The translations under genes and the position numbers were made by a program. From UHGV virus genome UHGV-0176991: a stretch of DNA of 44,683 bases; one strand, given 5' to 3'. Positions 1-44,683 of the stretch are shown here, piece after piece (the first letter of the stretch is position 1; each line of letters starts with the position of its first letter). The notes below the pieces were generated by a model, which was not told the origin of the DNA, ran no database searches, and saw only the letters and a program-made list of their open reading frames with translations. Origin of the DNA: a virus.

Positions 1-2876
1 ACAATATTTTCGCAGGCTTTGCCGCCGTGTGTGTACAGGGTAGTCCATTGGCGGGTTAACTGGTTTTCACCTTGGTACTTGATTCGCACATTCGTGTTCA
101 CCCGTCCATCTTCGTCTGTTTCCTTTGTCACGCTAACGCCGATTCCAGGGTACGAGAGGATACGGCCTGATGGCAACTCCATACACAACCACCAGCCAGG
201 AACCTTCCTGCCCGACGAATCAAATTCAACGGTACGCCATATGCGGATAGCCCTTTCACCATTCCGGCGCAAGTGTGCCCCCGCCCAAAATTCACGGCCA
301 GGATTACGAACAGCGGCTAAAATTCCGTCTTTAAGGTCGCGCCAGAACGCTACTGTTTCCGGGTGTGACTCGCGCCACATACGCTTGATTGCGTCACATG
401 TGCGCCACACTTTCTTGTCCAGAATATACGACGGTCGGTCGTCCTTTTCGCCCGGATGCGGCGGTCGCTTTGCTTCCTGGATACGCGCCCACTCATAACC
501 GCGTGCGGTAGCGGCCCATATGTGGTCGGGGAATGTACCGTCCATTGTTTTTGCCATCTCGATAAGGTCAAGACCTAAGTTTTTAGCAAACGTAACGAAC
601 GCCCCGACGCCCCCCTCATAGCCGAGACCGAGCTCGCAGTTATGCGCCACAAGAAAGCCAGAGTCGGAAGCTATAAGAAAACGGTTGCCGTCTTCCACAT
701 CAATCAGGTCGTACACTGGCTCGCAGTAGGTTAATTTCCCGTTCAAGCTCAGCAATGCGGGCAACGGCTGCATCATACTTTCGTTGAAGCTCAGGTATTC
801 GCCGTCTGTTACGGCAGTTTTCAGAACGGCTGACAAACCGAATGTTTCCAGGTTCGTAGTTACCGTCTGTGTCGATTCTGTCCATTTCGAGGTTCGGGTC
901 ATCCCAGCCTTCCAGAGTTTGAACATATCTAAGAAAAGACCTTTTATCAGTCCTCCACTGGTCAAATACCGTGATGCCTCTTGCCCCATAGTTTTTATAA
1001 CCCTTATCCCTGGGGCTTGTTGTTCGCGTGATTGCCGCGGACAGCCGGTTGAGTAATCGCGTTCTGTGCACATCATCCGGCATTGCGTCTTCGTAGCAGA
1101 AATATTGTTTACGATATTTTTTTGTTGCTTCAAGGGCGCAACGGTTGCATTGAGTGGTTTTACCTGCTCTGACATTGTCATAATAGACCCGCCCCGGCAT
1201 CTCTCCGCAATCACATTGGACGAGTAGTTGTCTTTGGCCTTGTCGTTTTGGTAACTCGCGCAGGATAACCAGGCGTCCATACCTATCTCCAGGGCTCGGT
1301 CCATCATATATTTGTTTGAAACGAGTTGCTTTGCCTGCTTCCAGGAATGCGTCAAGATTTTGTGGTCTTCGGTCATTAGCACCCCGTCCACATTTATTAC
1401 CGGTTTCCACCCCATAAGGTGCGCGCCTTTTGTATTCACCCATTTTTCACCGCTCCATACTTTATCTGTCGATGTGACCGCCATAATATCCTTAAATCCG
1501 CCATCGGTCAAAACTTGGGTATGGCGGTGAAGGCAGGCTTTACCAATCTGGCGTAAGTCTTTGCGTTCTTTCTTAATGTAATCCGGCTCCATGCCGAACA
1601 TCTTACCTGCGGTTACGCAGTAAATATCCAACCCAGCACGGAACGTATCGAGCGCGGTTTCTTCGCCAGCCAGCCACGCAAGCCCCCGGCCTTCAACGTT
1701 AGAGTAATCGGCAATAACAAACTTATGTCCGGCTTCCGGTATTATGCAGCTACGGACCGTCGATGCTGTCAGCTTGGCTACATCAAAACGGCGATGCGCC
1801 CGGCCCTTAAGTAACGCTGAAATGCCTTTATCGAGTTCATCATCGTGATAGTACCCTCGCGCCAGGTTCTGCGGCTGGAAGCCTTTACCTGCCCATCGCA
1901 GAGTACGTTTTGCCCCGCCGTACTGCAAGCAACCGCGGCGGCGGTCGTCAGAAGAGCGACCTAATAGCAGCGGGTTATATTTCGTGGATGCTGTGGACGC
2001 CGCCCCGAGTCGCATTTCGATAATAGTGCGCGCGTCGTCTGGCAAATCATCGTCCGCCAGCAGGTCGTTAAGCGTCGACTTCTGTGCGTTGTGAATACGG
2101 TGCGCAGGCGCAAGTTCACGCAGAATAGGCAGGAAATCTTTACCAGTAAGCGACCCGCCGTATTTGCGTTGGGCTTCTTCCTGTAACTGCGCTTTGTGCT
2201 TCTCTACGGCTTCAATCGCGGCTTCTGCCAGCGCGACGTCAACCTTAAACCCTCGGTCGTTAATTAACTGATCCAGTTCCAGTACCCGGTCCTCGAACTC
2301 GGAGTTACCCCACCGCGGCAGCTTATGGAAGACTTCACGCATCGCAGTGATGTCGCTCACGGCGTACTTGATGAACAGCGCCCACTCGTCCGGGTGCGTT
2401 TCGGCGGTGTAGCGGCGGATTTTGTAGTTCTTTGGCGTAGGTTTAGAAAAACGTTGAATCAGCGCCTTGCCGCGTTTATCTTTCGCATTGTCCGCGGACA
2501 CGCCCAGCACTTCGCACAACGCATCAAGTGAACCAGGCAGCGCGTGACGAAACGCCCAAATCATCGTATCAATGGTGTTGCTTACTGGAATATCAAAGCC
2601 CCAGCAGTGCTTCATGATGAGCCTGTCGAACATTGAACCGTTGTGCCATACCATCTTGATGCGGCTGTTAGGCTTCACCAGGCGGCGCAAGGCGCGGTGC
2701 AAATCTCCCGGCATGTCGCTGCCATCAGTGCAATCCCATACCTGCACAGGCTCGTCGTCAAAAGCATAGGTACAGATAAGCACTTCGGTAGTTGGATGTT
2801 CCGCGTAGGCATAGGAACCGACTTTCTTTAAATCGGCTTCGGAGAATGTTTCAAAGTCTAAGAACAGGTAACTCAT
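1..2876 (-). CDS. DNA polymerase, family A (Pol I/T7-like), N-terminal and central part; intein-containing; gene continues across the window junction into 44461..44683
   Basis: Hand translation of minus strand from ATG at 2876: MSYLFLDFETFSE (3-5 exonuclease motif), motif A IADYSNVEGRG, motif B split RQIGKA / CELGLGYEGG by an intein; frame open to position 1. Not in ORF track (no stop in window). Confidence 0.85.
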   Translation of the reverse strand, partial: MSYLFLDFETFSEADLKKVGSYAYAEHPTTEVLICTYAFDDEPVQVWDCTDGSDMPGDLHRALRRLVKPNSRIKMVWHNGSMFDRLIMKHCWGFDIPVSNTIDTMIWAFRHALPGSLDALCEVLGVSADNAKDKRGKALIQRFSKPTPKNYKIRRYTAETHPDEWALFIKYAVSDITAMREVFHKLPRWGNSEFEDRVLELDQLINDRGFKVDVALAEAAIEAVEKHKAQLQEEAQRKYGGSLTGKDFLPILRELAPAHRIHNAQKSTLNDLLADDDLPDDARTIIEMRLGAASTASTKYNPLLLGRSSDDRRRGCLQYGGAKRTLRWAGKGFQPQNLARGYYHDDELDKGISALLKGRAHRRFDVAKLTASTVRSCIIPEAGHKFVIADYSNVEGRGLAWLAGEETALDTFRAGLDIYCVTAGKMFGMEPDYIKKERKDLRQIGKACLHRHTQVLTDGGFKDIMAVTSTDKVWSGEKWVNTKGAHLMGWKPVINVDGVLMTEDHKILTHSWKQAKQLVSNKYMMDRALEIGMDAWLSCASYQNDKAKDNYSSNVIAERCRGGSIMTMSEQVKPLNATVAPLKQQKNIVNNISATKTQCRMMCTERDYSTGCPRQSREQQAPGIRVIKTMGQEASRYLTSGGLIKGLFLDMFKLWKAGMTRTSKWTESTQTVTTNLETFGLSAVLKTAVTDGEYLSFNESMMQPLPALLSLNGKLTYCEPVYDLIDVEDGNRFLIASDSGFLVAHNCELGLGYEGGVGAFVTFAKNLGLDLIEMAKTMDGTFPDHIWAATARGYEWARIQEAKRPPHPGEKDDRPSYILDKKVWRTCDAIKRMWRESHPETVAFWRDLKDGILAAVRNPGREFWAGAHLRRNGERAIRIWRTVEFDSSGRKVPGWWLCMELPSGRILSYPGIGVSVTKETDEDGRVNTNVRIKYQGENQLTRQWTTLYTHGGKACENI
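639..1535 (-). mobile_element. intein (Hint-type splicing element) inserted in DNA polymerase motif B
   Basis: In pol frame: CLHRHTQVLTDGGFKDIMAV (block A), VLMTEDHKILT (block B), VYDLIDVEDGNRFLIASDSGFLVAHN then extein Cys (blocks F/G); 897 nt = 299 codons, in frame with both exteins. Confidence 0.8.
700..1443 (-). CDS. HNH homing endonuclease (zinc-knuckle plus YKNYGxRGI and RIDxDGNYEPGN motifs), encoded in a different frame nested inside the intein
   Basis: ORF track protein: CDCGEMPGR...QCNRCA, GYKNYGARGITVFDQW, EMDRIDTDGNYEPGNIRF; GGAG 9 nt upstream of ATG (minus strand); frame differs from intein/pol frame. Confidence 0.75.
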   Translation of the reverse strand: MGEYKRRAPYGVETGNKCGRGANDRRPQNLDAFLEAGKATRFKQIYDGPSPGDRYGRLVILRELPKRQGQRQLLVQCDCGEMPGRVYYDNVRAGKTTQCNRCALEATKKYRKQYFCYEDAMPDDVHRTRLLNRLSAAITRTTSPRDKGYKNYGARGITVFDQWRTDKRSFLRYVQTLEGWDDPNLEMDRIDTDGNYEPGNIRFVSRSENCRNRRRIPELQRKYDAAVARIAELEREINLLRASVRPD

Positions 2877-2893
2877 TATTTTCGACCCTTAGT

Positions 2894-2917
2894 AAAAAGG
2901 CCCAATAAAGGGCCTTA
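2894..2917 (-). terminator. hairpin plus T-run between SSB gene and polymerase gene (possible attenuator)
   Basis: Minus-strand reading: ggccc-tttatt-gggcc followed by ttttt. Confidence 0.4.
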
Positions 2918-2935
2918 GTTAAATTGATTCAGATA

Positions 2936-3562
2936 TTAGCGGCGGCGACGTTCGCGGCGTGGTGCTTCATCTTCTTCGTCGTCTTCCAGGTCGTCGACGC
3001 TTGCGGCGACTTTAGAACCCCCGAACGCTTTACCTTCACCGACGTATTTAATCGCCAGCAGGTTAACACCGAGAACTTTGTATTTCTGGCTGAACCAGAT
3101 TTCAACGCTTACGTTAGCGACGCAGCCGCTGTAAACCTGTTCACCTTCAATCTGTTCGCCGTCTACGTTGAAGTCTTGCTCTACCTGAGTTTCGCCTTTT
3201 TTAGAGGTTACAATCAGCGGCTGTTTCTGCGCCTTCGCTTTGAAGTAGAAGCCTTCCGGGAAGTCTTCAAACGGATTGTCGCGCTCAGCAATGTCTTTAA
3301 TAGCGCATTTATCCATGTGCTTACCTTCGCCGTAGTTGGACTTCATCCATTTCTCGGCGGCGGCTGAACCTAACGCTTCTTCAACTACAGCGTAAACCGT
3401 ATCGTAGAGCGCGTCGATTTGCGCATGGTCAGACGGCAGGATGATAGTCGCGCTGTACTGGCCCTTAGTGATTGAGCCATCATCGTTTTCACGGTCTTTT
3501 TCGCGTTCGAATACGTTAACCCATGCAGTGTTTACTTTACGCAGATTCAGTTTAATACCCAT
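2936..3562 (-). CDS. single-stranded DNA-binding protein, T7 gp2.5-like, with acidic DDLEDDEEDE segment near C-terminus
   Basis: 208 aa; FYFKAKA...LIVTSKKGE and YSGCVANVSVEIWF...GEGKAFGG architecture resembling gp2.5; acidic tail. Confidence 0.5.
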   Translation of the reverse strand: MGIKLNLRKVNTAWVNVFEREKDRENDDGSITKGQYSATIILPSDHAQIDALYDTVYAVVEEALGSAAAEKWMKSNYGEGKHMDKCAIKDIAERDNPFEDFPEGFYFKAKAQKQPLIVTSKKGETQVEQDFNVDGEQIEGEQVYSGCVANVSVEIWFSQKYKVLGVNLLAIKYVGEGKAFGGSKVAASVDDLEDDEEDEAPRRERRRR

Positions 3563-3616
3563 CTTAATTTCTCGCTTTTCAGTTTACTCCGGGAAGCTGC
3601 CCGGCCAGTGATTAGA

Positions 3617-3645
3617 ACTATAATAGCTAACTATTCAGGTGTCAA
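3617..3645 (-). promoter_or_regulatory. sigma70-type promoter (minus strand) TTGACA-17-TATAGT
   Basis: Reverse complement reads TTGACAcctgaatagttagctatTATAGT; upstream of SSB gene. Confidence 0.5.
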
Positions 3646-3878
3646 CCCTTCCAGCCAGTTATTTTCTCAACTATAGTTAAATATACGTTAGGCCACTCCA
3701 AATTCTGCACCCATTTAAGTTCCTTCGTCGAGTCCAGTTCCTCAGGGTCTACTATTTCGTACTTAATCGCAACGTAGACCACGAGTGGGAGTAAGATAAT
3801 TAAAAGCGGTGTTACCATAGCCCAATAAACAACAAACGCCATAAATCCACCAAGCACCCTGAACATTTTACGAATCAT
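3642..3878 (-). CDS. small membrane protein
   Basis: Hydrophobic segments (FMAFVVYWAMVTPLLIILLPLVVYVAI); start chosen at internal ATG 3878 overlapping upstream stop (ATGA) with GAGGAGGA SD. Confidence 0.55.
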   Translation of the reverse strand: MIRKMFRVLGGFMAFVVYWAMVTPLLIILLPLVVYVAIKYEIVDPEELDSTKELKWVQNLEWPNVYLTIVEKITGWKG

Positions 3879-5116
3879 TCCAAATCCTCCTCTGTTACCT
3901 GATTCCACTCAGGCCGTTTGTCGTCTGCCGTTGCGACGCATGGCGCGCCTGGCTTACGTGTAATGAAGTCTTTCAGTTCTTCTTCCGGTATGACTTTAAC
4001 AGCTTCGGTCGGCGTCATGAGTACTACTTTTTGCAGCATAGTACCGTACTTCTCGAATACAGCATCGGTATCTTTCCATGCACGATTACCAGGGCGACCT
4101 TCAACCAGCTTGTAACCCGGCACTTTCTTACCGAAATGCAATGCGGCAGCCATAGCTTTTTCAACCTTGTCGATGTGCTGGCGCAACAACGGTAACTTCT
4201 CATACTCAGCTACGAGTTGCTCCGGCGTAAGTTCCAGCGCAAAGTCGTCCTCCAGTTCTTCCGCGAGTACAGAGTTAACGGTCTTTGTACGCGCGGCGCA
4301 CTGTTCGGAGAACCGGCACCACTGACAACCATCATCCGACGGCCTGAAGTCCGACGCTTTCAGGTTCTTCTTGCCACGGAAATACGCGTCTAGTGCTAAT
4401 AGTGCACGTTTATGTGCAAACTTAGCGAACAGTTCCAGGCCTTCAACAGAGATGTCCCACTCTGACGCGCCTCCAGCGTACGGCTGGAAGATGACCAGAC
4501 GAACAACTGTTATGTTATAACGTCTCTTTAGCCGGCGATAAACACCGAGAGCGTAAAGCATAAGCTGCTTGTTTTCTTTTGCTTCGACACGATGTCGTCC
4601 TGTTTTCAGGTCGCCGATAATGAGCATGTGCTCGTCTGTGTTAGCCAGTTCCTGCACAGCAACAAGGTCAGCGGTTCCGAACGTCTCAACGCCTTCATAT
4701 CCAGGGTGCAATACCTCAGTGAGATTGATGCGCATTTCCAGCTTGGCATAAGTCGCTACGTCGATAATCGCTTTGCAGTAGTCCGTGTACTTGCGTACCT
4801 GCTCAATCATGTCCGCTGTAATCGGTACTGCACCTTTCATCGGGCTGATAAGCGCCTTAATCTGGCCTTTGCCCTCATCCAGCACGTAAGCGCCAACTTC
4901 ACGCTCTAATGGCAACGCAGTGCCTTTGATGTACTGGTTAAGGTGCATCTCGGCTATGGTGTGCATAGCTGTGCCCAATACAGCAGCTTTACCCGACGTG
5001 TTAGGAATATCTTTCTCACAGGCCAGCGAAGCTGCACAACTTAGCCATTTCTTAGCGCCTGACGGCGACAGCAAGGCGTGTACATCGTTATTGCCGCCGC
5101 GTTCTTTTAAAATCAT
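3875..5116 (-). CDS. PD-(D/E)XK exonuclease, Cas4/RecB-like (DUF2800-type)
   Basis: 413 aa; GTADLV...IGDLKTG...QLMLYALG nuclease motifs and C-terminal CQWCRFSEQC cysteine cluster. Confidence 0.7.
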   Translation of the reverse strand: MILKERGGNNDVHALLSPSGAKKWLSCAASLACEKDIPNTSGKAAVLGTAMHTIAEMHLNQYIKGTALPLEREVGAYVLDEGKGQIKALISPMKGAVPITADMIEQVRKYTDYCKAIIDVATYAKLEMRINLTEVLHPGYEGVETFGTADLVAVQELANTDEHMLIIGDLKTGRHRVEAKENKQLMLYALGVYRRLKRRYNITVVRLVIFQPYAGGASEWDISVEGLELFAKFAHKRALLALDAYFRGKKNLKASDFRPSDDGCQWCRFSEQCAARTKTVNSVLAEELEDDFALELTPEQLVAEYEKLPLLRQHIDKVEKAMAAALHFGKKVPGYKLVEGRPGNRAWKDTDAVFEKYGTMLQKVVLMTPTEAVKVIPEEELKDFITRKPGAPCVATADDKRPEWNQVTEEDLE

Positions 5117-5373
5117 TATTTAGCGTCCTCTGGTAGTTCCGGTAAATACATCCAGTGCGTTATGCCCATCTCGATATACTGTTTCGTATATAACTGATTT
5201 CCGTTTTTATCCAGCCCAGCAGTAATGTCGTCGAAATAGTCCTGTATATGTACAAAATCAATTCCACCTTCCGGGAACCCGTTATCGCCATATTTACGGC
5301 CATCTACTGAGCAAACTAAAACAGAATCGTCTTTTGACTCCGGTAATGCTTCGTTTACGCTAATCCAATTCAT
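5116..5373 (-). CDS. DUF551-like phage protein
   Basis: MNWISVNEALPE...ITHWMYLPELP pattern; start at internal ATG 5373 overlapping upstream stop. Confidence 0.5.
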   Translation of the reverse strand: MNWISVNEALPESKDDSVLVCSVDGRKYGDNGFPEGGIDFVHIQDYFDDITAGLDKNGNQLYTKQYIEMGITHWMYLPELPEDAK

Positions 5374-16304: not shown

Positions 16305-16397
16305 TACATCCCGCCCAATCCCCTTATATAATCCCTTTAGACGCGTAGGGCGCGTCTGGTGCGCTCTGATGGTCAGACGCATATGCAAGGGGATTCT

Positions 16398-16943
16398 ATG
16401 AAGCTGAAACTAAAGCAGCCGTCGCCAGAGGTGGTGCAAGCTGCACATGAAGAAGCTGTTAGCGCAAACCGTCGCCGTAAACGGCCACGCGGTAAACAGA
16501 GCCTTTATCAATCATCCCGTAATTCCGCCGCGTTGTGGGACCCGGACTACTGCGACGCTTTAATCGAGTTCTTCGACCGCACGTCGTGGGAGCTTGTTCC
16601 TACGTCCAAAGGCGACGAGCGCCCGCTGATTCAGGATAAGCCGCCGTCGCTGGCCCGCTTCGCCTTACACATCGGCGTCACTATCCCGATTATTAAGCTG
16701 TGGCTGCGTGAGATTCCAGCATTTGCAGAAGCCTGGGAGACAGCACAGGCGCTGGAAGAGGCGTACTTCACTGAGACAGGGGCCGCGGGCATCTCCGCTA
16801 CGTTTGCTGCGGCTAAGCTGGGCCTCAGCAAAGAGAAACCGGTTGAATCGACCGAAGAAACGGCACCGACCGAGATTGTTTTCAGCGTTGCGGAGCCTGT
16901 AGGTAAAATCGTAACAACGAATATGGGAGAGGTAGAGGAATGA
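16398..16943 (+). CDS. terS: terminase small subunit
   Basis: Directly upstream of and overlapping terL; HTH-like SLARFALHIGVTIPIIKLWL; AAGGGGA SD. Confidence 0.6.
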   Translation: MKLKLKQPSPEVVQAAHEEAVSANRRRKRPRGKQSLYQSSRNSAALWDPDYCDALIEFFDRTSWELVPTSKGDERPLIQDKPPSLARFALHIGVTIPIIKLWLREIPAFAEAWETAQALEEAYFTETGAAGISATFAAAKLGLSKEKPVESTEETAPTEIVFSVAEPVGKIVTTNMGEVEE

Positions 16944-18190
16944 GTATTCAGCTATCCGCTCCACAGGCGCTGTTCCTGAATTGCGATAACAAATACAAGG
17001 CATACGTCGGCGGCTTCGGTAGCGGCAAAACCTTTGTTGGCTGTCTGGACCTGCTTACGTTTATACTAAAGCACCCCGGTACACGCCTCGGCTACTTCGG
17101 CCCCACATACCCGGCTATCCGCGACATTTTCTACCCGACATTCGAGGAAGCGGCTAACCTACTCGGCCTCGATGTGCTGGTTAAATCCGGCGACAAAGAA
17201 GTCGTGGTTACGCGAGGCAAGACGGTGCTCGGTACGGTTATCTGCCGTTCAATGGATAACCCGGGTTCGATAGTTGGTTTCAAAATCGCGGCTGCGGTCG
17301 TCGATGAGTTGGACGTATTGAGCCGTGAGAAAGCGGAACTGGCGTGGAACAAAATCGTAGCCCGTATGCGTCTGGTTATCCCGGGCGTAATTAACCACAT
17401 CTCCGTCACCACGACGCCGGAAGGGTTCAAGTTCGTCTACGCCAAGTTCAAAGAGAACCCGACGCCGAGTTACTCGATGGTTCAGGCTTCCACTCATGAG
17501 AATGCGCGATTCCTGCCGCCGGATTACATTAGCTCGCTGACCGAGACTTACCCGGCGCAACTGATTAACGCGTATCTGAACGGTGAGTTCGTTAACCTGA
17601 CATCCGGCAGCGTGTACTACGCCTATGACCGCCGTAAGCACCGCAGCAAAGAGACAATTCAACCGGGCGACACTCTGTATATCGGGCAGGACTTCAACGT
17701 TACAAAGAACGCAAGCGCCGTGTATGTGCAACGTAAAGACGGCTGGCACGCTGTCGCTGAACTGAAAGGCCTGTTCGATACGCCGGACACCGTGCGCGTA
17801 ATTACCGAGAAGTGGAAGTCGCAAGGCCACCGCATCGTCGTTTACCCCGACGCCAGCGGAAAGAACCGCAAAACCAACTCGGCGTCAATCTCTGATATCG
17901 CCTTACTACAGCAGGCCGGGTTCGATGTTCGCGCTAAATCCGCCAACCCACCGGTTAAAGACCGTGTTTTAGCCGTGAATACCGCGCTGGAAAAAGGTAA
18001 GCTGTGGGTTAACGACCACTTATGCCCCGAGATAGCGAAGACGCTGGAGCAGCAGGCATACGACGATAACGGTGAACCAGCTAAAGACGGCGTTATTGAC
18101 CATATGGCGGATGCTCTCGGCTATCCTGTAGTTTACGAGATGCCGGTGGTTAAACCAGTAATCAACATCCCGGTGACTTTCGCACTTTAA
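16940..18190 (+). CDS. terL: terminase large subunit
   Basis: Walker A GGFGSGKT, Walker B AAVVDELD, C-terminal nuclease-type acidic residues. Confidence 0.9.
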   Translation: MSIQLSAPQALFLNCDNKYKAYVGGFGSGKTFVGCLDLLTFILKHPGTRLGYFGPTYPAIRDIFYPTFEEAANLLGLDVLVKSGDKEVVVTRGKTVLGTVICRSMDNPGSIVGFKIAAAVVDELDVLSREKAELAWNKIVARMRLVIPGVINHISVTTTPEGFKFVYAKFKENPTPSYSMVQASTHENARFLPPDYISSLTETYPAQLINAYLNGEFVNLTSGSVYYAYDRRKHRSKETIQPGDTLYIGQDFNVTKNASAVYVQRKDGWHAVAELKGLFDTPDTVRVITEKWKSQGHRIVVYPDASGKNRKTNSASISDIALLQQAGFDVRAKSANPPVKDRVLAVNTALEKGKLWVNDHLCPEIAKTLEQQAYDDNGEPAKDGVIDHMADALGYPVVYEMPVVKPVINIPVTFAL

Positions 18191-18202
18191 GAGGATTATT
18201 CA

Positions 18203-19672
18203 ATGTTAACTATGAACGGTCAGAATCAGGGTGTTAAGACAAAACACCGGGAATGGCTGCATCACTTCGATAAATGGCAGAAGGTACGCCACGCGCTGGA
18301 AGGCGACCTTATTCGCTATCTTCGCAACGTCGGGAAGAACGAGCCGGACCCGACCTATGCAGCCCAGCGCCAGGAAGAATATGAGAACGGCGCTATCTGC
18401 TACAACTTCACTAAACGTACCCTGGCCGGGATGGTCGGGTCAGTGATGCGCAAGGACCCCGAGCAGATTATCCCGCCTGAGCTTGAGTACCTGTTACGCA
18501 ACGCCGATGGTTCTGGTGTCGGGCTGTGGCAGCACGCGCAGGATACGCTAATGGAGATTGACTCGGTAGGCCGGGGCGGGTTGCTGGTGGACGCCCCGGA
18601 GACCGCCGCTGCAACGGCGGCAGAGCAGAACGCGGGATTATTAAACCCGGTCATCGCATTCTACACCGCAGAGAACATCATCAACTGGCGACTTACCCGC
18701 GTCGGTTCGGTTAACCGTGTGACGATGGTCGTGTTGCGAGAAGTATGGGAGTACTCGGAGACAGGTGCAGAGTTCGAAACAAAGTTCGGCGAGCAATACC
18801 GCGTTCTCGATTTGATTGACGGACGATACCGCCAGCGCATTTATCGCTTCGATGCCGAAGGTGGTGCTCAGGGTGAAGTAATCGAAATATTCCCGGAACT
18901 TGGCGAACAGTTGCGCGGCAAAATTCCGTTCACGTTCATTGGGGCGAGCAACAACGATGCAACTATTGACGATGCACCTTTGCTGCCGCTGGCTGAGCTT
19001 AATATCGGGCATTTCCGCAACAGCGCGGACAATGAGGAGTCCAGCTTCGTCGTAGGCCAGCCTACTCTGTTCATCGCCCCGGGCGATAACATGAGCATGG
19101 AACAGTGGAAAGAAGCCAACCCCCGCGGCGTCCGCATGGGGTCTCGTTCAGGCCATAACATCGGTTACGGCGGCAATGCGTTTCTTGTTCAGGCAGGAGA
19201 GAACAACCTGGCCAAGCAGAATATGCTGGATAAAGAGAATCAGGCCATCCAGATTGGCGCGCAGCTTATCACCCCGACGCAGCAAATCACCGCTGAATCA
19301 GCTCGCCTGCAACGCGGCGCTGACACGTCTGTTATGGCGACAATCGCACGTAACGTAAGCATGGCGTATACTGATGCGTTGCGCTGGGTGGCCGCAATGC
19401 TGGGGCTACGTGAAGGCACAGAGATTGAGTTCAAGCTGAATATGGAGTTCTTCCTGCAACCGATGACCTCTCAGGACCGCGCTCAGTGGATGGCTGATAT
19501 TAACGCGGGCTTGTTACCGGCTACCGCTTACTATGCTGCGTTGCGCAAGGCGGGTGTAACTGACTGGACAGACGAGGACATTCAGAACGCTATTGAGGAT
19601 GCACCGTTGCCGTTAGGCGCGGTTACTCCGGTAGCAGGAGAGATTCCGCAGTCGGCGCAGCAACAGGAGTAA
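18203..19672 (+). CDS. portal protein
   Basis: 489 aa immediately after terL; position and size. Confidence 0.7.
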   Translation: MLTMNGQNQGVKTKHREWLHHFDKWQKVRHALEGDLIRYLRNVGKNEPDPTYAAQRQEEYENGAICYNFTKRTLAGMVGSVMRKDPEQIIPPELEYLLRNADGSGVGLWQHAQDTLMEIDSVGRGGLLVDAPETAAATAAEQNAGLLNPVIAFYTAENIINWRLTRVGSVNRVTMVVLREVWEYSETGAEFETKFGEQYRVLDLIDGRYRQRIYRFDAEGGAQGEVIEIFPELGEQLRGKIPFTFIGASNNDATIDDAPLLPLAELNIGHFRNSADNEESSFVVGQPTLFIAPGDNMSMEQWKEANPRGVRMGSRSGHNIGYGGNAFLVQAGENNLAKQNMLDKENQAIQIGAQLITPTQQITAESARLQRGADTSVMATIARNVSMAYTDALRWVAAMLGLREGTEIEFKLNMEFFLQPMTSQDRAQWMADINAGLLPATAYYAALRKAGVTDWTDEDIQNAIEDAPLPLGAVTPVAGEIPQSAQQQE

Positions 19673-19992: not shown

Positions 19993-21036
19993 ATGAGCTT
20001 ACTGACATCACTAATCAGCCACCAGATTTGGCTGCAACGCGCCGCATCCGGCGAGGTGAAAGACCTTGCGCCGTTCATTCAGGAGATGCGGGACGAAATC
20101 AAACGGCAGGTGCTGTTATTCGGTGACGACGGACGCAGTACTGCACGACTGAACAAACTGTTACGCGACCTCGAAGAAGCACTAACCGGGCTTACTGGCG
20201 ACTGGCAAACAAAGCTGACAGAAGACCTTAAGGAACTGGCGGTGTATGAGGCCGAGTGGAATGTAAAGACACTGACCGCCAACGTTAACGCGGAATTTGT
20301 TACGCCTACAGCCGAGCAGGTGTGGGCCGCTGCCGAGTTTCAGCCCTTATCGTTAAGCGACAAGCCTGTTGACTTCACTAAGCTGATGTCGGGCTGGGGC
20401 GAAACAGAGGTATCGCGCCTGGTAACAGGTGTTAAGATGGGTTTCGTACAAGGTCAAACCACACGGCAGATTGTTAAAAATGTCGTAGGCGCTGGTGGAC
20501 TGGCAGACATCTCTGAACGTAATGCGGCTACAGTAATCCGCACTGCTCTGTCTCACGTATCCAACGAAGCCCGCAACGAGACGTACCGCCAGAACGACGG
20601 CATTATCGAGAAGTACGAGTGGGTGTCGACGCTGGACAGCCGCACCAGTACGATTTGCAGGTCCAGAGACGGAATGACATGGGAAATTGGTAAAGGGCCG
20701 ATGCCCCCCGCCCATCCGAACTGCAGGTCGTGCACGGCTCCGGTAATAAGTTCCGAGTTCGACTTCCTCGATAAAGGTGCAAAACGTGCTGCTAAGGGCG
20801 CGGACGGGGGTACTCAGGTAAGTGCAGACACCACTTACTACGAGTTCCTGAAACAGCAACCGGCGTGGTTTCAGGACCAGGCGCTCGGCCCTGTTCGCGG
20901 TAAGATTTTCCGTAACAGCGGTATATCGCCGGAAGAGTTTCGCGTAATATCTGTAGATGGTTTCGGGAATCCGCTCACGCTTAAGCAGATGGCGGAACTC
21001 GATAAACGTGTTGCTGATTATCTGAAAGGGGAATAA
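19993..21036 (+). CDS. head morphogenesis protein (Mu gpF / SPP1 gp7-like)
   Basis: VSTLDSRTSTICRSRDGMTWEIGKGPMPPAHPNCRSCTAPV signature. Confidence 0.75.
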   Translation: MSLLTSLISHQIWLQRAASGEVKDLAPFIQEMRDEIKRQVLLFGDDGRSTARLNKLLRDLEEALTGLTGDWQTKLTEDLKELAVYEAEWNVKTLTANVNAEFVTPTAEQVWAAAEFQPLSLSDKPVDFTKLMSGWGETEVSRLVTGVKMGFVQGQTTRQIVKNVVGAGGLADISERNAATVIRTALSHVSNEARNETYRQNDGIIEKYEWVSTLDSRTSTICRSRDGMTWEIGKGPMPPAHPNCRSCTAPVISSEFDFLDKGAKRAAKGADGGTQVSADTTYYEFLKQQPAWFQDQALGPVRGKIFRNSGISPEEFRVISVDGFGNPLTLKQMAELDKRVADYLKGE

Positions 21037-22417: not shown

Positions 22418-23119
22418 ATGAATCGTTTTTTATGTTATCCGTTCCAGGAAGAAGCTGGGGCAGAAGATAAAGCCGGCGGCGGTGATGCGCCGAAAATGTT
22501 CACAGCTGAAGAAGTTCAGGCGCTGATTGAGAAAGAAGTTGCCGGACTTAAGGCCAATCAGGAAGCATTGCTGGCGGAGAAGAAAGAAGCTGCTCGCAAA
22601 GCAAAAGAGGCCGAAGACGAACGGCAGCGCGCACACCAGGAGGCGTTAAAAGCCGCTGGTAAGATGGACGAGTTCGAAAAGACGATTCGTAGCCAGTATG
22701 ACCCGGTGTTAGCCGAGAAAGATGGTCGCATCTCCCGAATGGCAGAGCGCATCCTCGGCAGCGAACGTAAAGCGGTGTTAGGCTCTTTCGCGGGTGATTT
22801 TATTACCCCGGAAGCAGTAGACATTCTTGCTCCGTTCGTTAAGACTGAGTTCGAAGGCGATGACGTGGTTACTAAGTTTGTCGGAGCAGACGGCAACGTA
22901 ATCACGACTGACCCGGAACAGTTCCGCAAATACCTGCGCGAACACAAAGCGTTTTCGCATTTGATTAAAGCAAATGCAGCTTCCGGCGGCGGGGCTTCCG
23001 GTAGCAAAGGCGGCGGGGCCGCACCAGCGTTTAAAGACATGAGTGAAGCGGAGCGTTTAGCTCTGTATAAATCGAACCCTGCCGAATTTGAACGGCAACT
23101 TAAAGCCCTGAGGAAATAA
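22418..23119 (+). CDS. scaffolding protein
   Basis: Charged, alanine/lysine/glutamate-rich helical protein immediately upstream of major capsid gene; ATG 22418 preferred over TTG 22364. Confidence 0.55.
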   Translation: MNRFLCYPFQEEAGAEDKAGGGDAPKMFTAEEVQALIEKEVAGLKANQEALLAEKKEAARKAKEAEDERQRAHQEALKAAGKMDEFEKTIRSQYDPVLAEKDGRISRMAERILGSERKAVLGSFAGDFITPEAVDILAPFVKTEFEGDDVVTKFVGADGNVITTDPEQFRKYLREHKAFSHLIKANAASGGGASGSKGGGAAPAFKDMSEAERLALYKSNPAEFERQLKALRK

Positions 23120-23121
23120 TA

Positions 23122-24171
23122 ATGGCAATTACCACTATCGGCGATATCGTAACTGGCAACATCCCGGTCCTGGCGTCTTATATGACCGAGGACCCGGTAG
23201 AAAAAACCGCGTTCTTCCAGTCCGGTATTCTTACCCCGACTCCGTACGCTGCCGAGATTGCCCGCGGCCCGTCCAACATCGCTAATATTCCTTTCTGGAA
23301 AGCGATTGATACCTCTATCGAGCCTAACTACTCGAACGATGTATACCAGGACATCGCAACCCCGCGTAACGTGCAGACCGGTGAGATGATGGCCCGCGTT
23401 GCGTACCTGAACGAAGGTTTTGGTCAGGCAGATTTGACCGTTGAACTGACCAGCCAGAACCCGCTGCAATCCGTAGCGTCCCGCCTGGATAACTTCTGGC
23501 AGCGCCAGGCGCAACGTCGTCTGATTGCTACCGCGCTCGGCCTGTACAACGACAACGTAGCCGCTACCGATGCTTACCACGAGCAGAACGACATGGTTGT
23601 AGACGTGTCCTCTACTCTGGGCTTCGATGCCGGTGCATTCATCGACGCTACCCAGACTATGGGTGATGCACTGATGGGTAACGGTGGTGAAGTGCTGGGC
23701 GCTATTGCGATGCACAGCTTCGTTTATGCGCAGGCTCGTAAGCAGCAGCTTATCGACTTCATCCGTGACGCTGACAACAACACCATGTTCGCCACCTACC
23801 AGGGCTACCGCGTTATTGTTGACGACAGCATGACCGTAGTCGGTACAGGTGGCGACCGTAAGTTTATCTCCATCATCTTCGGCAACGGCGCTATCGGTTA
23901 CGGTGAAGGTAACCCAACCAATCCGCTGGCCTATGAGCGCGAAGAGTCTCGCGGCAACGGTGGCGGCGTTGAAACCCTGTGGACCCGCAAGACCTGGTTG
24001 CTGCATCCGCTGGGCTACAGCTTCACCAGCGCGGTAATCACCGGTAACGGCACCGAGACTATCGCCCGCTCTGCTTCCTGGCAGGACCTGGCGAACGCCT
24101 CCAACTGGAACCGCGTTGTTGACCGTAAGCATGTGCCGATTGCCTTCCTGGTAACTGGTGTTGGTGCTTAA
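23122..24171 (+). CDS. major capsid protein
   Basis: 349 aa after scaffold, followed by strong terminator. Confidence 0.7.
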   Translation: MAITTIGDIVTGNIPVLASYMTEDPVEKTAFFQSGILTPTPYAAEIARGPSNIANIPFWKAIDTSIEPNYSNDVYQDIATPRNVQTGEMMARVAYLNEGFGQADLTVELTSQNPLQSVASRLDNFWQRQAQRRLIATALGLYNDNVAATDAYHEQNDMVVDVSSTLGFDAGAFIDATQTMGDALMGNGGEVLGAIAMHSFVYAQARKQQLIDFIRDADNNTMFATYQGYRVIVDDSMTVVGTGGDRKFISIIFGNGAIGYGEGNPTNPLAYEREESRGNGGGVETLWTRKTWLLHPLGYSFTSAVITGNGTETIARSASWQDLANASNWNRVVDRKHVPIAFLVTGVGA

Positions 24172-28603: not shown

Positions 28604-29097
28604 TATTTACCGTGGTTCTTGTGAAACCCTAAATCTCTTTCAGCAACTCTCCTCGCGGCAACTGCATCTAGTAGCGTTTTAAAGCATCCGATGTGTGTTT
28701 TTACGTTATTGTTGAATATCTGCGCATACCACAACCTTTCTTTCGCGTTCCAGTAAACCCCGGTTACTCCTGATTTATTATTACGCTGTTTTGACATATT
28801 TTTATGGTTTTCCGCATTGGACTTTTTAGCTAAGTTAAGCGGTCTATTGTTTATTCGGTTATGGTCTAGATGGTCTATTTGATCTGACGAGGTTAGCTTA
28901 TCGTTAGGATTGTTTAAGTCCCATGCTATACGGTGTGCCGCGTGCCATTTGCCTCTGAAAAATATCCTTCTATATCCGTCTCGCTGTATAGTACCTGCCT
29001 CCTCTCCAGCCTTAGCCCTCCCGGACCGTGTTACTCTGTTAAATATCCTTCCTGAAATTAAGTCGTATATGAAAAATTCATTCCAATCCATAATCAT
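28603..29097 (-). CDS. HNH homing endonuclease with AP2 DNA-binding domain
   Basis: IDHLDHNRINNRPLNL (HNH) and SGVTGVYWNAKERLWYAQIFNNNVKTHIGCFKTLLDAVAARRVAE (AP2); AT-rich relative to flanks. Confidence 0.75.
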   Translation of the reverse strand: MIMDWNEFFIYDLISGRIFNRVTRSGRAKAGEEAGTIQRDGYRRIFFRGKWHAAHRIAWDLNNPNDKLTSSDQIDHLDHNRINNRPLNLAKKSNAENHKNMSKQRNNKSGVTGVYWNAKERLWYAQIFNNNVKTHIGCFKTLLDAVAARRVAERDLGFHKNHGK

Positions 29098-29137: not shown

Positions 29138-29311
29138 CTCACTTTTGAATGGCATTTCATAGAAGTTAGTTAACTGGCCCCGGTTACTCCGTTCTGTCAT
29201 TTCTTTAGAGGCCTCTTCCTTACTACCGACGGCATAAATATCGACCCACTCGTCCCATTCTTCGTCGTATACTCGGATTACATATATTGTTTTCATAATA
29301 TTTTCACTCAT
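29135..29311 (-). CDS. hypothetical small protein
   Basis: Internal ATG of ORF 29135..29353. Confidence 0.35.
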   Translation of the reverse strand: MSENIMKTIYVIRVYDEEWDEWVDIYAVGSKEEASKEMTERSNRGQLTNFYEMPFKSE

Positions 29312-41158: not shown

Positions 41159-41340
41159 TTTTTACCTTCGCTTTTCTTGAAACTGCGCTTTATATCCGAC
41201 AGCGTGTAGCACCGTGATTTTTCGTATTTACCGTCCGAGCTTACCAAAACAAAGCTGTTGCCGTCTTTTGATATGTACTCGATGGTGAAAATATTGAATG
41301 AATGTACGCTGTATATTTCATCGCCAACATTAAGTTTCAT
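41155..41340 (-). CDS. hypothetical small basic protein
   Basis: 61 aa ORF overlapping helicase stop. Confidence 0.4.
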   Translation of the reverse strand: MKLNVGDEIYSVHSFNIFTIEYISKDGNSFVLVSSDGKYEKSRCYTLSDIKRSFKKSEGKK

Positions 41341-42761
41341 CTCTTACCCCGTCTCTTCATGTAATTAAGCAACTCTTCCTGAACCGATTTCTTCTCGTCT
41401 GTACGCGCGGCAACAACCTCGTCCAGCGTGTCCTTAGCAACAATGTGGTAGAGGAACACCGGTCGCTCGTGACCCGCCTGTTTCTGACGTACCGGGCCGA
41501 TGCGCTCGACAACCTGCAAATAGTGCTCGAGGTTCCAGCCTTGCGAAATAAACGCCAGATGATGCCCGCCGTCCTGTAAATTCAAACCATGCCCGGCTGA
41601 CGCAGGGTGTACGCATAATATTTCGATTTCACCTCGGTTCCACGCTTCCATCTGCTTATTACCTTTAGCGCCTTTTGCAAACGCCTGTGCCTGTGGGAAC
41701 CGCTTAAGGATGCGCTCCAGCTCGTGCTTAAACTGATAGGCGACCAGTAACGGCGCACCCTGTAACTCCTCGACAATTGACTCAAGCGCGTCCAGTTTAG
41801 TGTCATGCACTTTCTCCCAGTCTTTGGTTGCTTCTCCGTCTGGCCCTGATACATACACAGCACCGGATGCAATCTGCAAGCACTTCGACGTCTTCGCCGC
41901 CGCGTTAGCCGCTTCAACTTCTCCGCTCTCCAGTTCCGCGAATAACTTCTCCTCCATGTCTATGTACGCCTGACGTGCTTTCTTCGGCAGGTCGATCTCA
42001 ACCGGTACAATAATCGGCGCTTCACAACCAAACCACTCGGCTGGGTCGATGGTCAGACTGATGTCTTTCATCTTCTGGTGAATTTCATTATCGGCACCAG
42101 GGCGCGCGTGATATTCACGGGCCATCGCCGACTTACCTTTCTGTACCGAGTTAAACCAGCGGTCGGTGAACGCAGTGTACGATGAACCGAGGCGCTCGCC
42201 AGCGTCGATAAACCAGTTTTGACCCCACAAGTCTTTGAGGCCGTTTGGCGATGGTGTACCTGTCAGGTTGATGAAACGCTTAACCTTTCCGAACGCCACT
42301 TTGCTTAGCGCCTTAGCCCGTTTGCTTCCGCCAGAACGGCTGCGGAACGATTTCAACTTCGTGCTTTCATCGGCAACGATAACCGTAAAAGGCCAGTCGT
42401 CTTTGCCGTAGTAGTCAATCAGCCACTCGATAACTTCGTAGTTAGTGCACACCACATTAGCATCTGACTCCAGCGCTGCGATGCGGCGTTTCTCTGAACC
42501 AGTAGCGTCGACAACACGCAGACAAGGGAAGCTCCATTTCTCCTGTTCTGCGGGCCACGTACCCGATGCAACTCGTAACGGGGCGAGGATTAACACGCGG
42601 TCCTCTTCAGTAAGCTGTCCGTTGCGAAACAATCTGTTGAGCACCCACATAGTAGAGGAGGTTTTACCCCCTCCCATGCCGCACCAGATATTACAGCGCG
42701 GGTGTTTCAGCATGAACGAAGTCATGAGCTTCTGATATTCGCGCCTTTGAAACTTACTCAT
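41337..42761 (-). CDS. SNF2-family (SF2) helicase
   Basis: Walker A CGMGGGKT, DEST box VADESTKL, TGTPSPNG, SAGHGLNLQDGGH...GWNLEH. Confidence 0.75.
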   Translation of the reverse strand: MSKFQRREYQKLMTSFMLKHPRCNIWCGMGGGKTSSTMWVLNRLFRNGQLTEEDRVLILAPLRVASGTWPAEQEKWSFPCLRVVDATGSEKRRIAALESDANVVCTNYEVIEWLIDYYGKDDWPFTVIVADESTKLKSFRSRSGGSKRAKALSKVAFGKVKRFINLTGTPSPNGLKDLWGQNWFIDAGERLGSSYTAFTDRWFNSVQKGKSAMAREYHARPGADNEIHQKMKDISLTIDPAEWFGCEAPIIVPVEIDLPKKARQAYIDMEEKLFAELESGEVEAANAAAKTSKCLQIASGAVYVSGPDGEATKDWEKVHDTKLDALESIVEELQGAPLLVAYQFKHELERILKRFPQAQAFAKGAKGNKQMEAWNRGEIEILCVHPASAGHGLNLQDGGHHLAFISQGWNLEHYLQVVERIGPVRQKQAGHERPVFLYHIVAKDTLDEVVAARTDEKKSVQEELLNYMKRRGKR

Positions 42762-43575
42762 TTACTGCCCCCATGAACGCCTTTATAAATTCAGCAGCTA
42801 CTTGCGGGACGATGGCATTGCCGTAACCGCGCAATCGTCCCACTCTGGCGGGTATCCCATTAGCCAGCGGGAATGTGCCGGGTTCAACTGGCCTGAATTT
42901 CCCATCCCGGCATCCGAGCCAGTCAGTATCTGACCAAAAGCCGTTATGCGGATTGGTTGTGTTATAGCCGCCGCTTGCGCCACGTCCTGGGGTCCACCCT
43001 TCCTCTGAATTTCGGACAACGCGCCGTCCAGTGTCCGGACATTCTTCTCCCCGTCGGCGCTGCGAGGAGTGGGCCAGGTTGTGTGCGCCAAAGAACAGTC
43101 TGTCTCGCTTGTGCGGTGCGCCGACGCTACAAGCTGGGAGTACGGCAAACCCGACGGCGTAGTCTTCTCCCTCCAGGTGAGTTTGTAAATCACACATCCA
43201 CGATTTTCCAATTGCTGCCGCAACTTGTTCCCCAAAGAGGACTGGAGGTCGGCACTCGCTGATGAGGTCGAGGAATACGGGCGCGAGGTGTCTCGGGTCG
43301 AACTGTCCGAGTTGCTTTCCTGCCGTGCTAAACGGTTGGCAAGGCGGGCTTCCCGTCCAGAGAGGCGTATCTTCCGAAACTCCCGCAAGTCTGAGCGCGA
43401 GAGGCCAGCCGCCGATACCAGCGAAAAAATGACACTGGGTGAACCCGTCAAGGTCTTCTGGTCTAACTTCAGTAATGCTTCTTTCATCTACAACTCCAAA
43501 AGGTATATGACCCTGTTTTATTAGTTCACGCAGCCACGCGGCTGCACCCTTATCCCATTCGTTGTAATAGTTCAT
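42754..43575 (-). CDS. DNA (cytosine-5)-methyltransferase (motifs partly in an overlapping second frame)
   Basis: FAGIGG (I), GSPPCQPFS (IV), LFGEQV (VI-like), HKRDRLFF (VIII), GNAIVPQV (X); motif IX-like sequence lies in ORF 42798..43487. Confidence 0.65.
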   Translation of the reverse strand: MNYYNEWDKGAAAWLRELIKQGHIPFGVVDERSITEVRPEDLDGFTQCHFFAGIGGWPLALRLAGVSEDTPLWTGSPPCQPFSTAGKQLGQFDPRHLAPVFLDLISECRPPVLFGEQVAAAIGKSWMCDLQTHLEGEDYAVGFAVLPACSVGAPHKRDRLFFGAHNLAHSSQRRRGEECPDTGRRVVRNSEEGWTPGRGASGGYNTTNPHNGFWSDTDWLGCRDGKFRPVEPGTFPLANGIPARVGRLRGYGNAIVPQVAAEFIKAFMGAVNE

Positions 43576-44339: not shown

Positions 44340-44471
44340 TCATTCCAGCACCCACAGATAAATTGCTACTAACATACACAATACGGCGACCATCATGCCG
44401 TATTGGCCCTCGTGACAGTAGACACCGGCAGCAAATCCAGCCATTACCGCGATAATCAGTTTACTTGGCAT
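44340..44471 (-). CDS. hypothetical small hydrophobic protein (43 aa)
   Basis: Hand translation MPSKLIIAVMAGFAAGVYCHEG...; low confidence. Confidence 0.25.
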   Translation of the reverse strand: MPSKLIIAVMAGFAAGVYCHEGQYGMMVAVLCMLVAIYLWVLE

Positions 44472-44683
44472 AACGTTTTAACTCCTGTCCTTCCGCCACA
44501 AGAGGGAACCCCTCCGCCCATTCCGGTAATTCGCACATCAACCGCTCAAGCTCAGCCACATTGTATTCTGGCGCATCTGGGGTTTCACATACCAGTTCAT
44601 CGTGCACAGAAAGCACGATGTGATACCCGCCACGCTCAACGTTAATCATCGCATACGCAAGTAAATCACGGCACAGCGCCTGA
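44461..44683 (-). CDS. DNA polymerase family A, C-terminal segment (motif C); continuation of the gene at 1..2876
   Basis: YHIVLSVHDELV motif C; frame open to window end; joins codon-exactly with the ORF leaving position 1 (junction codon GTT). Confidence 0.85.
   Translation of the reverse strand, partial: QALCRDLLAYAMINVERGGYHIVLSVHDELVCETPDAPEYNVAELERLMCELPEWAEGFPLVAEGQELKRYAK

Follow-up and report, generated by a model that had tools for sequence, protein, structure and literature searches.

A complete 44,683-bp circular genome map of a Kagunavirus, opened within a DNA polymerase gene that carries a predicted intein

The stretch of phage DNA analysed here, 44,683 nucleotides long and hereafter called the window, is a complete unit genome with a circular map, in which no base is missing at the junction between its two ends. 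The ends join seamlessly inside a polymerase gene, and the window thus corresponds to one complete genome. Sequence comparison places the phage among the siphophages of the genus Kagunavirus (Guernseyvirinae). The explanation that we regard as very probable is that the window represents the unit genome of a virulent, headful-packaging Kagunavirus, circularised by an assembler and cut at an arbitrary point in the polymerase gene. That gene contains a predicted intein, inside which an overlapping reading frame, out of phase with the polymerase, would encode an HNH endonuclease.

The junction and the polymerase gene that crosses it

The window starts with acaatatttt... and finishes with ...gcacagcgcctga, and a search for terminal overlap or duplication within it found none. 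When position 44683 was joined to position 1 in silico, a single open coding sequence was obtained on the minus strand, running from 2876 to 1 and then from 44683 to 44461 (3099 nt, 1032 aa), with an ATG at 2876 and the stop codon TAA at 44463..44461. The 5' part of this gene (1..2876, minus strand) comprises codons 1-958 together with positions one and two of codon 959, and its 3' end (44461..44683, minus strand) extends from the third base of codon 959 to the final base of the stop codon at 44461, comprising the C-terminal 74 codons and the stop. Window bases 2 and 1 provide the G and T of the junction codon GTT (Val959) and base 44683 its last T; the flanking residues read ...LYTHGGKACENIV/QALCRDLLAYAMINVERGGYHIVLSVHDELV... 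or, in longer form, ...THGGKACENIV/QALCRDLL.... The first-pass annotation had claimed a shared codon phase for the two terminal reading frames, with GTT as the junction codon, and direct reading of the joined sequence bore this out in one frame of 1032 codons.

The joined gene encodes a family A (Pol I-type) DNA polymerase. Its product matches the Pfam family DNA_pol_A (PF00476) with 61.4 bits (cut-off 34.3; E = 9.7e-17) in two stretches separated by the intein, its N-terminus is a 3'-5' exonuclease-like region, and the polymerase motifs A, B and C follow in order and can be aligned to Pol I across the junction. Motif A (ADYSNVEGRGLA, at about 1677-1712 on the minus strand) reads DYSNVEGRGLA, compared with DYSQIELRVLA in Taq Pol I; motif B reads RQIGKA/CELGLGYEGG once the intein is removed; and the HDE of motif C, located in the 3' segment at 44596-44604, has its His 27 codons downstream of the junction. 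Joining the ends and aligning the product to Pol I, a check proposed on first reading, gave an alignment with Taq Pol I that spans the junction (KACENIVQALCRDLL...VHDELV against KAFNMPVQGTAADLM...VHDELV). The original description of a continuous motif B to motif C region of a family A polymerase therefore stands as regards the family, from both the Pfam match and the Taq alignment, but not as regards the continuity of motif B, which the intein splits in the DNA.

The closest comparison was provided by the Raoultella phage RP180 (NC_048181, Kagunavirus), whose 733-aa polymerase is 98% identical to the joined protein outside one insertion, and identical and ungapped around the junction. The only gap between both proteins is the 299-aa insertion, 212 codons upstream of the junction. 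Neither a gap, nor a frameshift, nor a non-homologous segment was found at the junction in the alignment with the RP180 polymerase.

At the 3' end of the polymerase gene, the stop codon shares bases with the start of a small gene that follows, at 44461-44471 on the minus strand (ATGCCAAGTAA, read as ...Y A K * in the polymerase and M P S K... in the following gene). The product of this small gene has 43 aa and looks hydrophobic, and the overlap suggests that both genes may be translationally coupled.

The nucleotide comparisons lead to the same picture. The window is circularly collinear with RP180, from 29189 to 44691 and then from 2 to 29188 of the latter, a collinearity that extends to gene order, and also with SXAU_B4. 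Window positions 44683 and 1 fall on the adjacent RP180 positions 29188 and 29189, and on the adjacent positions 29047 and 29046 of the circular SXAU_B4 record OQ696342.1. A 484-nt probe centred on the junction matched 211 phage records, over all 484 bases and in a single alignment without gaps. Similarly, GC skew is continuous through the junction, remaining negative from about 40 kb, through 44.7 kb, to 10 kb, in agreement with a single block of minus-strand replication genes spanning the junction.

When two genes close to the right end of the window were looked up by exact protein match, public assemblies also yielded identical contigs. These are broken elsewhere and are 100% identical to the circularised window through the junction; some may have been assembled anew from one sample or from linked samples, and they count as independent assemblies but not necessarily as independent samples. 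In the ENA assembly ERZ19628804 (contig 'k119_68916-flag_3-multi_1571-len_44802', 44,802 bp) the junction lies mid-contig within a 12,288-nt match free of mismatches and gaps, and the polymerase was called as a single gene of 1032 aa. The contigs from ERZ27289070 (44,802 bp), ERZ28625645 (scaffold_118, 44,738 bp) and Logan SRR7658622 (17,700 bp) end at window positions 43109, 43472 and 1156, respectively. The longer contigs exceed the window by 119 or 55 nt (44,802-119 = 44,738-55 = 44,683), and from these lengths we read each of them as a single copy of the genome extended by a k-mer overlap, a pattern characteristic of circular assembly paths. We take 119 and 55 to be the final k values of the assemblers, and the MEGAHIT label 'flag_3' presumably denotes a 'standalone loop'. 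The contiguity, the completeness and the unit length of the genome are thereby direct observations, and the earlier proposal of a 44,683-bp genome without missing sequence at the join is upheld by the 211-record probe, the RP180 alignment and the identical assemblies alike.

Phage identity, packaging genes and the form of the virion DNA

The best INPHARED matches to a 25-kb stretch of the window were Kagunavirus records with approximately 90% identity over 74-82% of its length, the top genome being BUCT825 (about 82% of the stretch at about 90% identity). No record reached species-level identity in this search, and the genome thus represents a distinct member of a well-known genus. The Kagunavirus phages Shashou (MK931440) and K1G (GU196277) share the packaging module of the window and have similar genomes of about 44 kb, whereas the remainder of the window genome is mosaic; furthermore, the intein reported for Shashou is in the helicase and that of the window in the polymerase. 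RP180, in spite of its collinear gene order, lacks the 897-nt polymerase intein, and its large terminase subunit (TerL) is only about 54% identical to that of the window, the N-terminal half being unalignable at the DNA level.

Several other features of the genome were recorded in the course of these comparisons. RP180 carries approximately 800 bp of extra sequence in a head-morphogenesis gene (4468-5269 of the RP180 locus, L001), absent from the window at 21023-21025; this extra sequence probably corresponds to the capsid-morphogenesis intein described in Snoke and vKMB36. The helicase of Salmonella phage vB_SenS-Ent1 (HE775250, Jerseyvirus; hereafter Ent1) has a LAGLIDADG intein; the length of the window helicase (474 aa, 41337-42761) suggests that such an intein is absent from it. 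An open frame of 524 aa at 22558-24132 on the minus strand, antisense to the scaffold and major capsid genes, is probably spurious. A scan of the whole window with ARAGORN returned no tRNA or tmRNA genes.

The virion DNA of tailed phages is linear, and a circular map can be obtained with any of three kinds of it, namely headful-packaged DNA that is permuted and redundant, DNA with cos ends and DNA with terminal repeats. The circle described here belongs to the map and not to the virion. The packaging genes were identified on the plus strand, with the small terminase subunit TerS at 16359..16943, TerL at 16940..18190 (Terminase_6N and Terminase_6C domains) and the portal gene at 18203..19672 (DUF4055). 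TerS is 94% identical (183/194 residues) to that of Shashou, in whose record TerS and portal are annotated as P22-like. TerL is 99% identical (410/416) to Shashou TerL, 99.3% to that of K1G and 57% to that of Serratia phage eta (NC_021563), and the portal is 64% identical to the eta portal; a PDB sequence search with TerL returned nothing meaningful. The identity of these genes is observed directly, and it is from their relatives that we infer a headful mechanism and the physical ends of the DNA.

Two sharply different TerL alleles occur in the subfamily. The type found in the window, that of K1G and Shashou, is present at an identity of at least 95% in 74 records, and its identity falls to only about 54% when compared with the TerL of RP180, of many other Kagunavirus and of most Jerseyvirus genomes, which makes the packaging module mosaic.

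Headful packaging, which would leave the virion DNA linear, circularly permuted and redundant at its ends, is well supported by inference, since TerL and TerS are nearly identical to those of Shashou, for which PhageTerm predicted pac packaging (PMC6776780). The contigs of several newly isolated Salmonella phages were likewise classified by PhageTerm as 'redundant, permuted' (PMC9409062), and the Kagunavirus fBC-Eco01 yielded no termini (PMC9825357), PhageTerm results for relatives being predictions and the outcome of one relative, 'no obvious termini', not a positive pac call. Under the explanation that we favour, replication would generate concatemers, from which the TerS/TerL terminase would start packaging at a pac site and make a second cut once the head was filled with slightly more than one genome length. 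The resulting virion DNAs would be linear, terminally redundant and circularly permuted, so that reads would cover every junction and assemble as a circle. The metagenome assembler would have closed this circle, its k-mer overlap would have been trimmed, and the opening point would have fallen in codon 959 of the polymerase.

It is unlikely, in our view, that the virion instead has fixed ends elsewhere, such as cos ends or short direct terminal repeats (for example near terS), merged by the assembler into a map that would be complete and yet unpermuted. The identical assemblies do not discriminate between these readings, as all three types of ends assemble as a circle with a k-mer overlap, and the terminase of fBC-Eco01 has been described in cos terms, only generically (PMC9825357). 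Against fixed ends stand the pac prediction for Shashou, with its near-identical TerL and TerS, and the clustering of the K1G/K1H type of TerL with those of headful phages (PMC5582158). Phage eta, with homologous TerL and portal, was found experimentally, by restriction analysis, to have permuted and terminally redundant DNA (PMC3918226), although its TerS and replication module are unrelated to those of the window and its lysogens are reportedly unstable. Furthermore, the position of the polymerase in related GenBank records varies between about 2.5 kb and about 39 kb, so that these records have no physical end in common.

Even less probable is that the circle reflects a truly circular molecule in the sample, namely a plasmid-like episome or an intracellular replicative form, and not packaged DNA. 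The source is a metagenome assembly, and infected cells would hold circular or concatemeric intermediates; the window, however, contains a full set of virion, packaging and lysis genes collinear with virulent Kagunavirus isolates, and the literature describes this group as lytic siphoviruses (PMC11990801, PMC9825357). An artefactual join, with unrelated end fragments in phase by chance or bases lost or duplicated in trimming, can practically be dismissed: we found no support for it, and it is refuted by the junction probe, the RP180 alignment and the identical assemblies, with ungapped nucleotide and protein alignments across the junction in hundreds of relatives, three other assemblies 100% identical across it and a window without terminal duplication.

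An intein in motif B and its overlapping HNH reading frame

The insertion in the polymerase gene lies at 639..1535 on the minus strand (897 nt, 299 aa, polymerase residues 448-746). It is a precise in-frame insertion, as the RP180 polymerase lacks exactly these residues, and it splits motif B between RQIGKA and CELGLGYEGG. The insertion shows the hallmarks of inteins, with Cys as its first residue (CLHRH...), a block-B TEDH, the end ...VAHN and a following Cys747; six distant homologues all share the first Cys, the TxDH and the terminal Asn. Neither the insertion nor the reading frame nested within it gave a Hint or HNH match in Pfam or NCBIfam, even at permissive E-values. A mini-intein profile derived from the window sequence and those of five distant homologues matched only inteins in the PDB, including the Neq Pol split intein (3.8e-5), Npu DnaE (1e-3), the Spl DnaX mini-intein (1.1e-3, nearly full length) and Mtu RecA. 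This similarity to Hint domains appears modest but specific, and the insertion is best read as a class 1 intein with a Hint domain. We infer that it is spliced out, because the polymerase should be essential and its motif B is interrupted. AlphaFold2 single-sequence models had a mean pLDDT of 31 for the intein and 38 for the nested frame and were unusable.

A group I or group II intron was also considered for the insertion and rejected. No Rfam match with E <= 1 was obtained for window positions 400-1800, the length of 897 nt equals 3 x 299, all relatives keep the host frame open, and the insert evolves at its two ends as codons of the polymerase frame.

The same insertion is found in Ent1, a phage differing from that of the window in genus and host. 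Its polymerase coding sequence also has 3099 nt and includes an intein of 897 nt at the corresponding position, the intein region being 93% identical in DNA to that of the window; its record describes an 'intein-containing DNA polymerase precursor' and mentions 'splicing domains' only, without an endonuclease. Between Salmonella and E. coli phages the intein is up to 98% conserved, compared with 86-93% for the flanking polymerase, as expected for a mobile element, and this higher conservation suggests its recent horizontal spread between phages of both hosts. In individual phages, identity in the intein region (560-1620) and over positions 1-3000 was 96.4% and 86.4% for Salmonella phage SLMP1, and 98.1% and 93.6% for fEg-Eco19, respectively.

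Nested within the intein is an open reading frame of 247 aa at 700..1443 on the minus strand, in the +2 frame relative to that of the polymerase and intein, with a GGAG 9 nt upstream of its ATG as a plausible Shine-Dalgarno sequence. It matches the HNH endonuclease family phrog_374 with E = 1.7e-47, as well as three further endonuclease PHROGs, two named HNH and one restriction endonuclease. About 160 Guernseyvirinae genomes share this layout, and annotation of the nested frame was absent from the GenBank records and metagenome gene calls that we inspected.

Several comparisons bear on which of the two overlapping frames is selected. Both are free of stop codons in 12 distinct relatives with 82-97% identity. 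In the exteins and the intein ends, variable sites fall on polymerase codon positions one, two and three in numbers of 17/6/57, that is, mostly on third positions (p = 2e-12). In the middle of the intein the corresponding numbers are 18/78/35, and the sites are mostly third positions of the HNH frame (p = 3e-10). When compared with the most divergent relatives (L011 and L012), the middle of the intein retains 58-59% amino acid identity in the polymerase frame and 82-83% in the HNH frame, the reverse being observed at the Hint ends, where the polymerase frame is the more conserved. Shuffling of the HNH codons left the polymerase frame open in none of 5000 trials, with a mean of 8.1 stops. From these site patterns, identities and shuffles, the endonuclease frame encodes the selected protein, under purifying selection, with the polymerase frame in that region merely kept free of stops.

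An origin of this layout in two compensating sequencing frameshifts was rejected, as the layout is identical in the 12 relatives; in addition, neither frame is interrupted in the distant loci L015, L017, L019 and L020 described below. We consider it reasonably likely that the element is a composite selfish element, in which a contiguous mini-intein overlaps a separately translated HNH gene, the stretch between the splicing domains being a stop-free linker that is spliced out, and that this represents an old and stable architecture rather than an in-frame intein in decay.

Distant homologues, related elements and significance

Homologous inteins, again inserted at this site of motif B and each with an HNH reading frame nested inside, occur in very distant family A polymerases of metagenomic phages. 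The polymerase and HNH frames are located at 88-1974 and 492-1277 in locus L015 and at 1938-3776 and 2423-3190 in L016, both with an offset of +2 and with HNH products 49% and 46% identical, respectively, to that of the window. The offset is +1 in L017 (895-3855 and 2333-3172), L019 (662-3559 and 2151-2969) and L020 (679-3576 and 2168-2986). No in-frame endonuclease was found among the loci examined, and L018 and L021 contain free-standing homologues. In L016 the polymerase frame is open and the HNH frame has one internal stop; this copy of the HNH gene may be decaying.

A second insertion was observed upstream in L016 (RFGG/CLVDD...KLVHN/SESINLQNLPRK), where the polymerase is broken into two reading frames in different phases, bridged by another HNH frame (82-1404, 1256-2026 and 1962-3779). 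This insertion looks like a split-intein 'fractured gene', in which a free-standing endonuclease gene lies between the halves of a split intein (Dassa et al. 2009, PMC2677866). The element of the window resembles 'fractured genes' in combining a mini-intein with a separately encoded endonuclease, and differs from them in that its intein is contiguous and the host frame runs straight through the endonuclease gene.

Intein endonucleases encoded out of frame have been described in actinophages (bioRxiv 10.1101/2025.01.02.630785) and in the cyanobacterial dnaX (bioRxiv 10.64898/2026.09.14.751524), and a hidden HNH has been described in a phage methylase (PMC11855218). The window element shares with the known out-of-frame cases a stop-free host frame, an endonuclease on the same strand in another frame and purifying selection on the latter. 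It differs from them in its host gene, a family A polymerase of enterobacterial Guernseyvirinae, in an endonuclease that matches HNH PHROG families rather than LAGLIDADG and, compared with ShiLan, in having recognisable splicing domains. The literature that we searched held no report of an out-of-frame endonuclease for Guernseyvirinae. The element therefore joins the few known inteins with an endonuclease in another frame, a kind that is rare and already known.

The two 'partial' polymerase frames at the ends of the window are one gene, and the window should be treated as circular in downstream work, starting for example at terS (16359). Circular closure is ordinary and expected of a headful siphophage, and brings nothing new biologically. 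The intein with its out-of-frame HNH frame, a side observation of this study, is of greater value. It constitutes a widespread example in enterobacterial phages of a nested reading frame that gene callers and curated records miss, and offers a tractable system in E. coli for the expression and homing of overlapping selfish genes.
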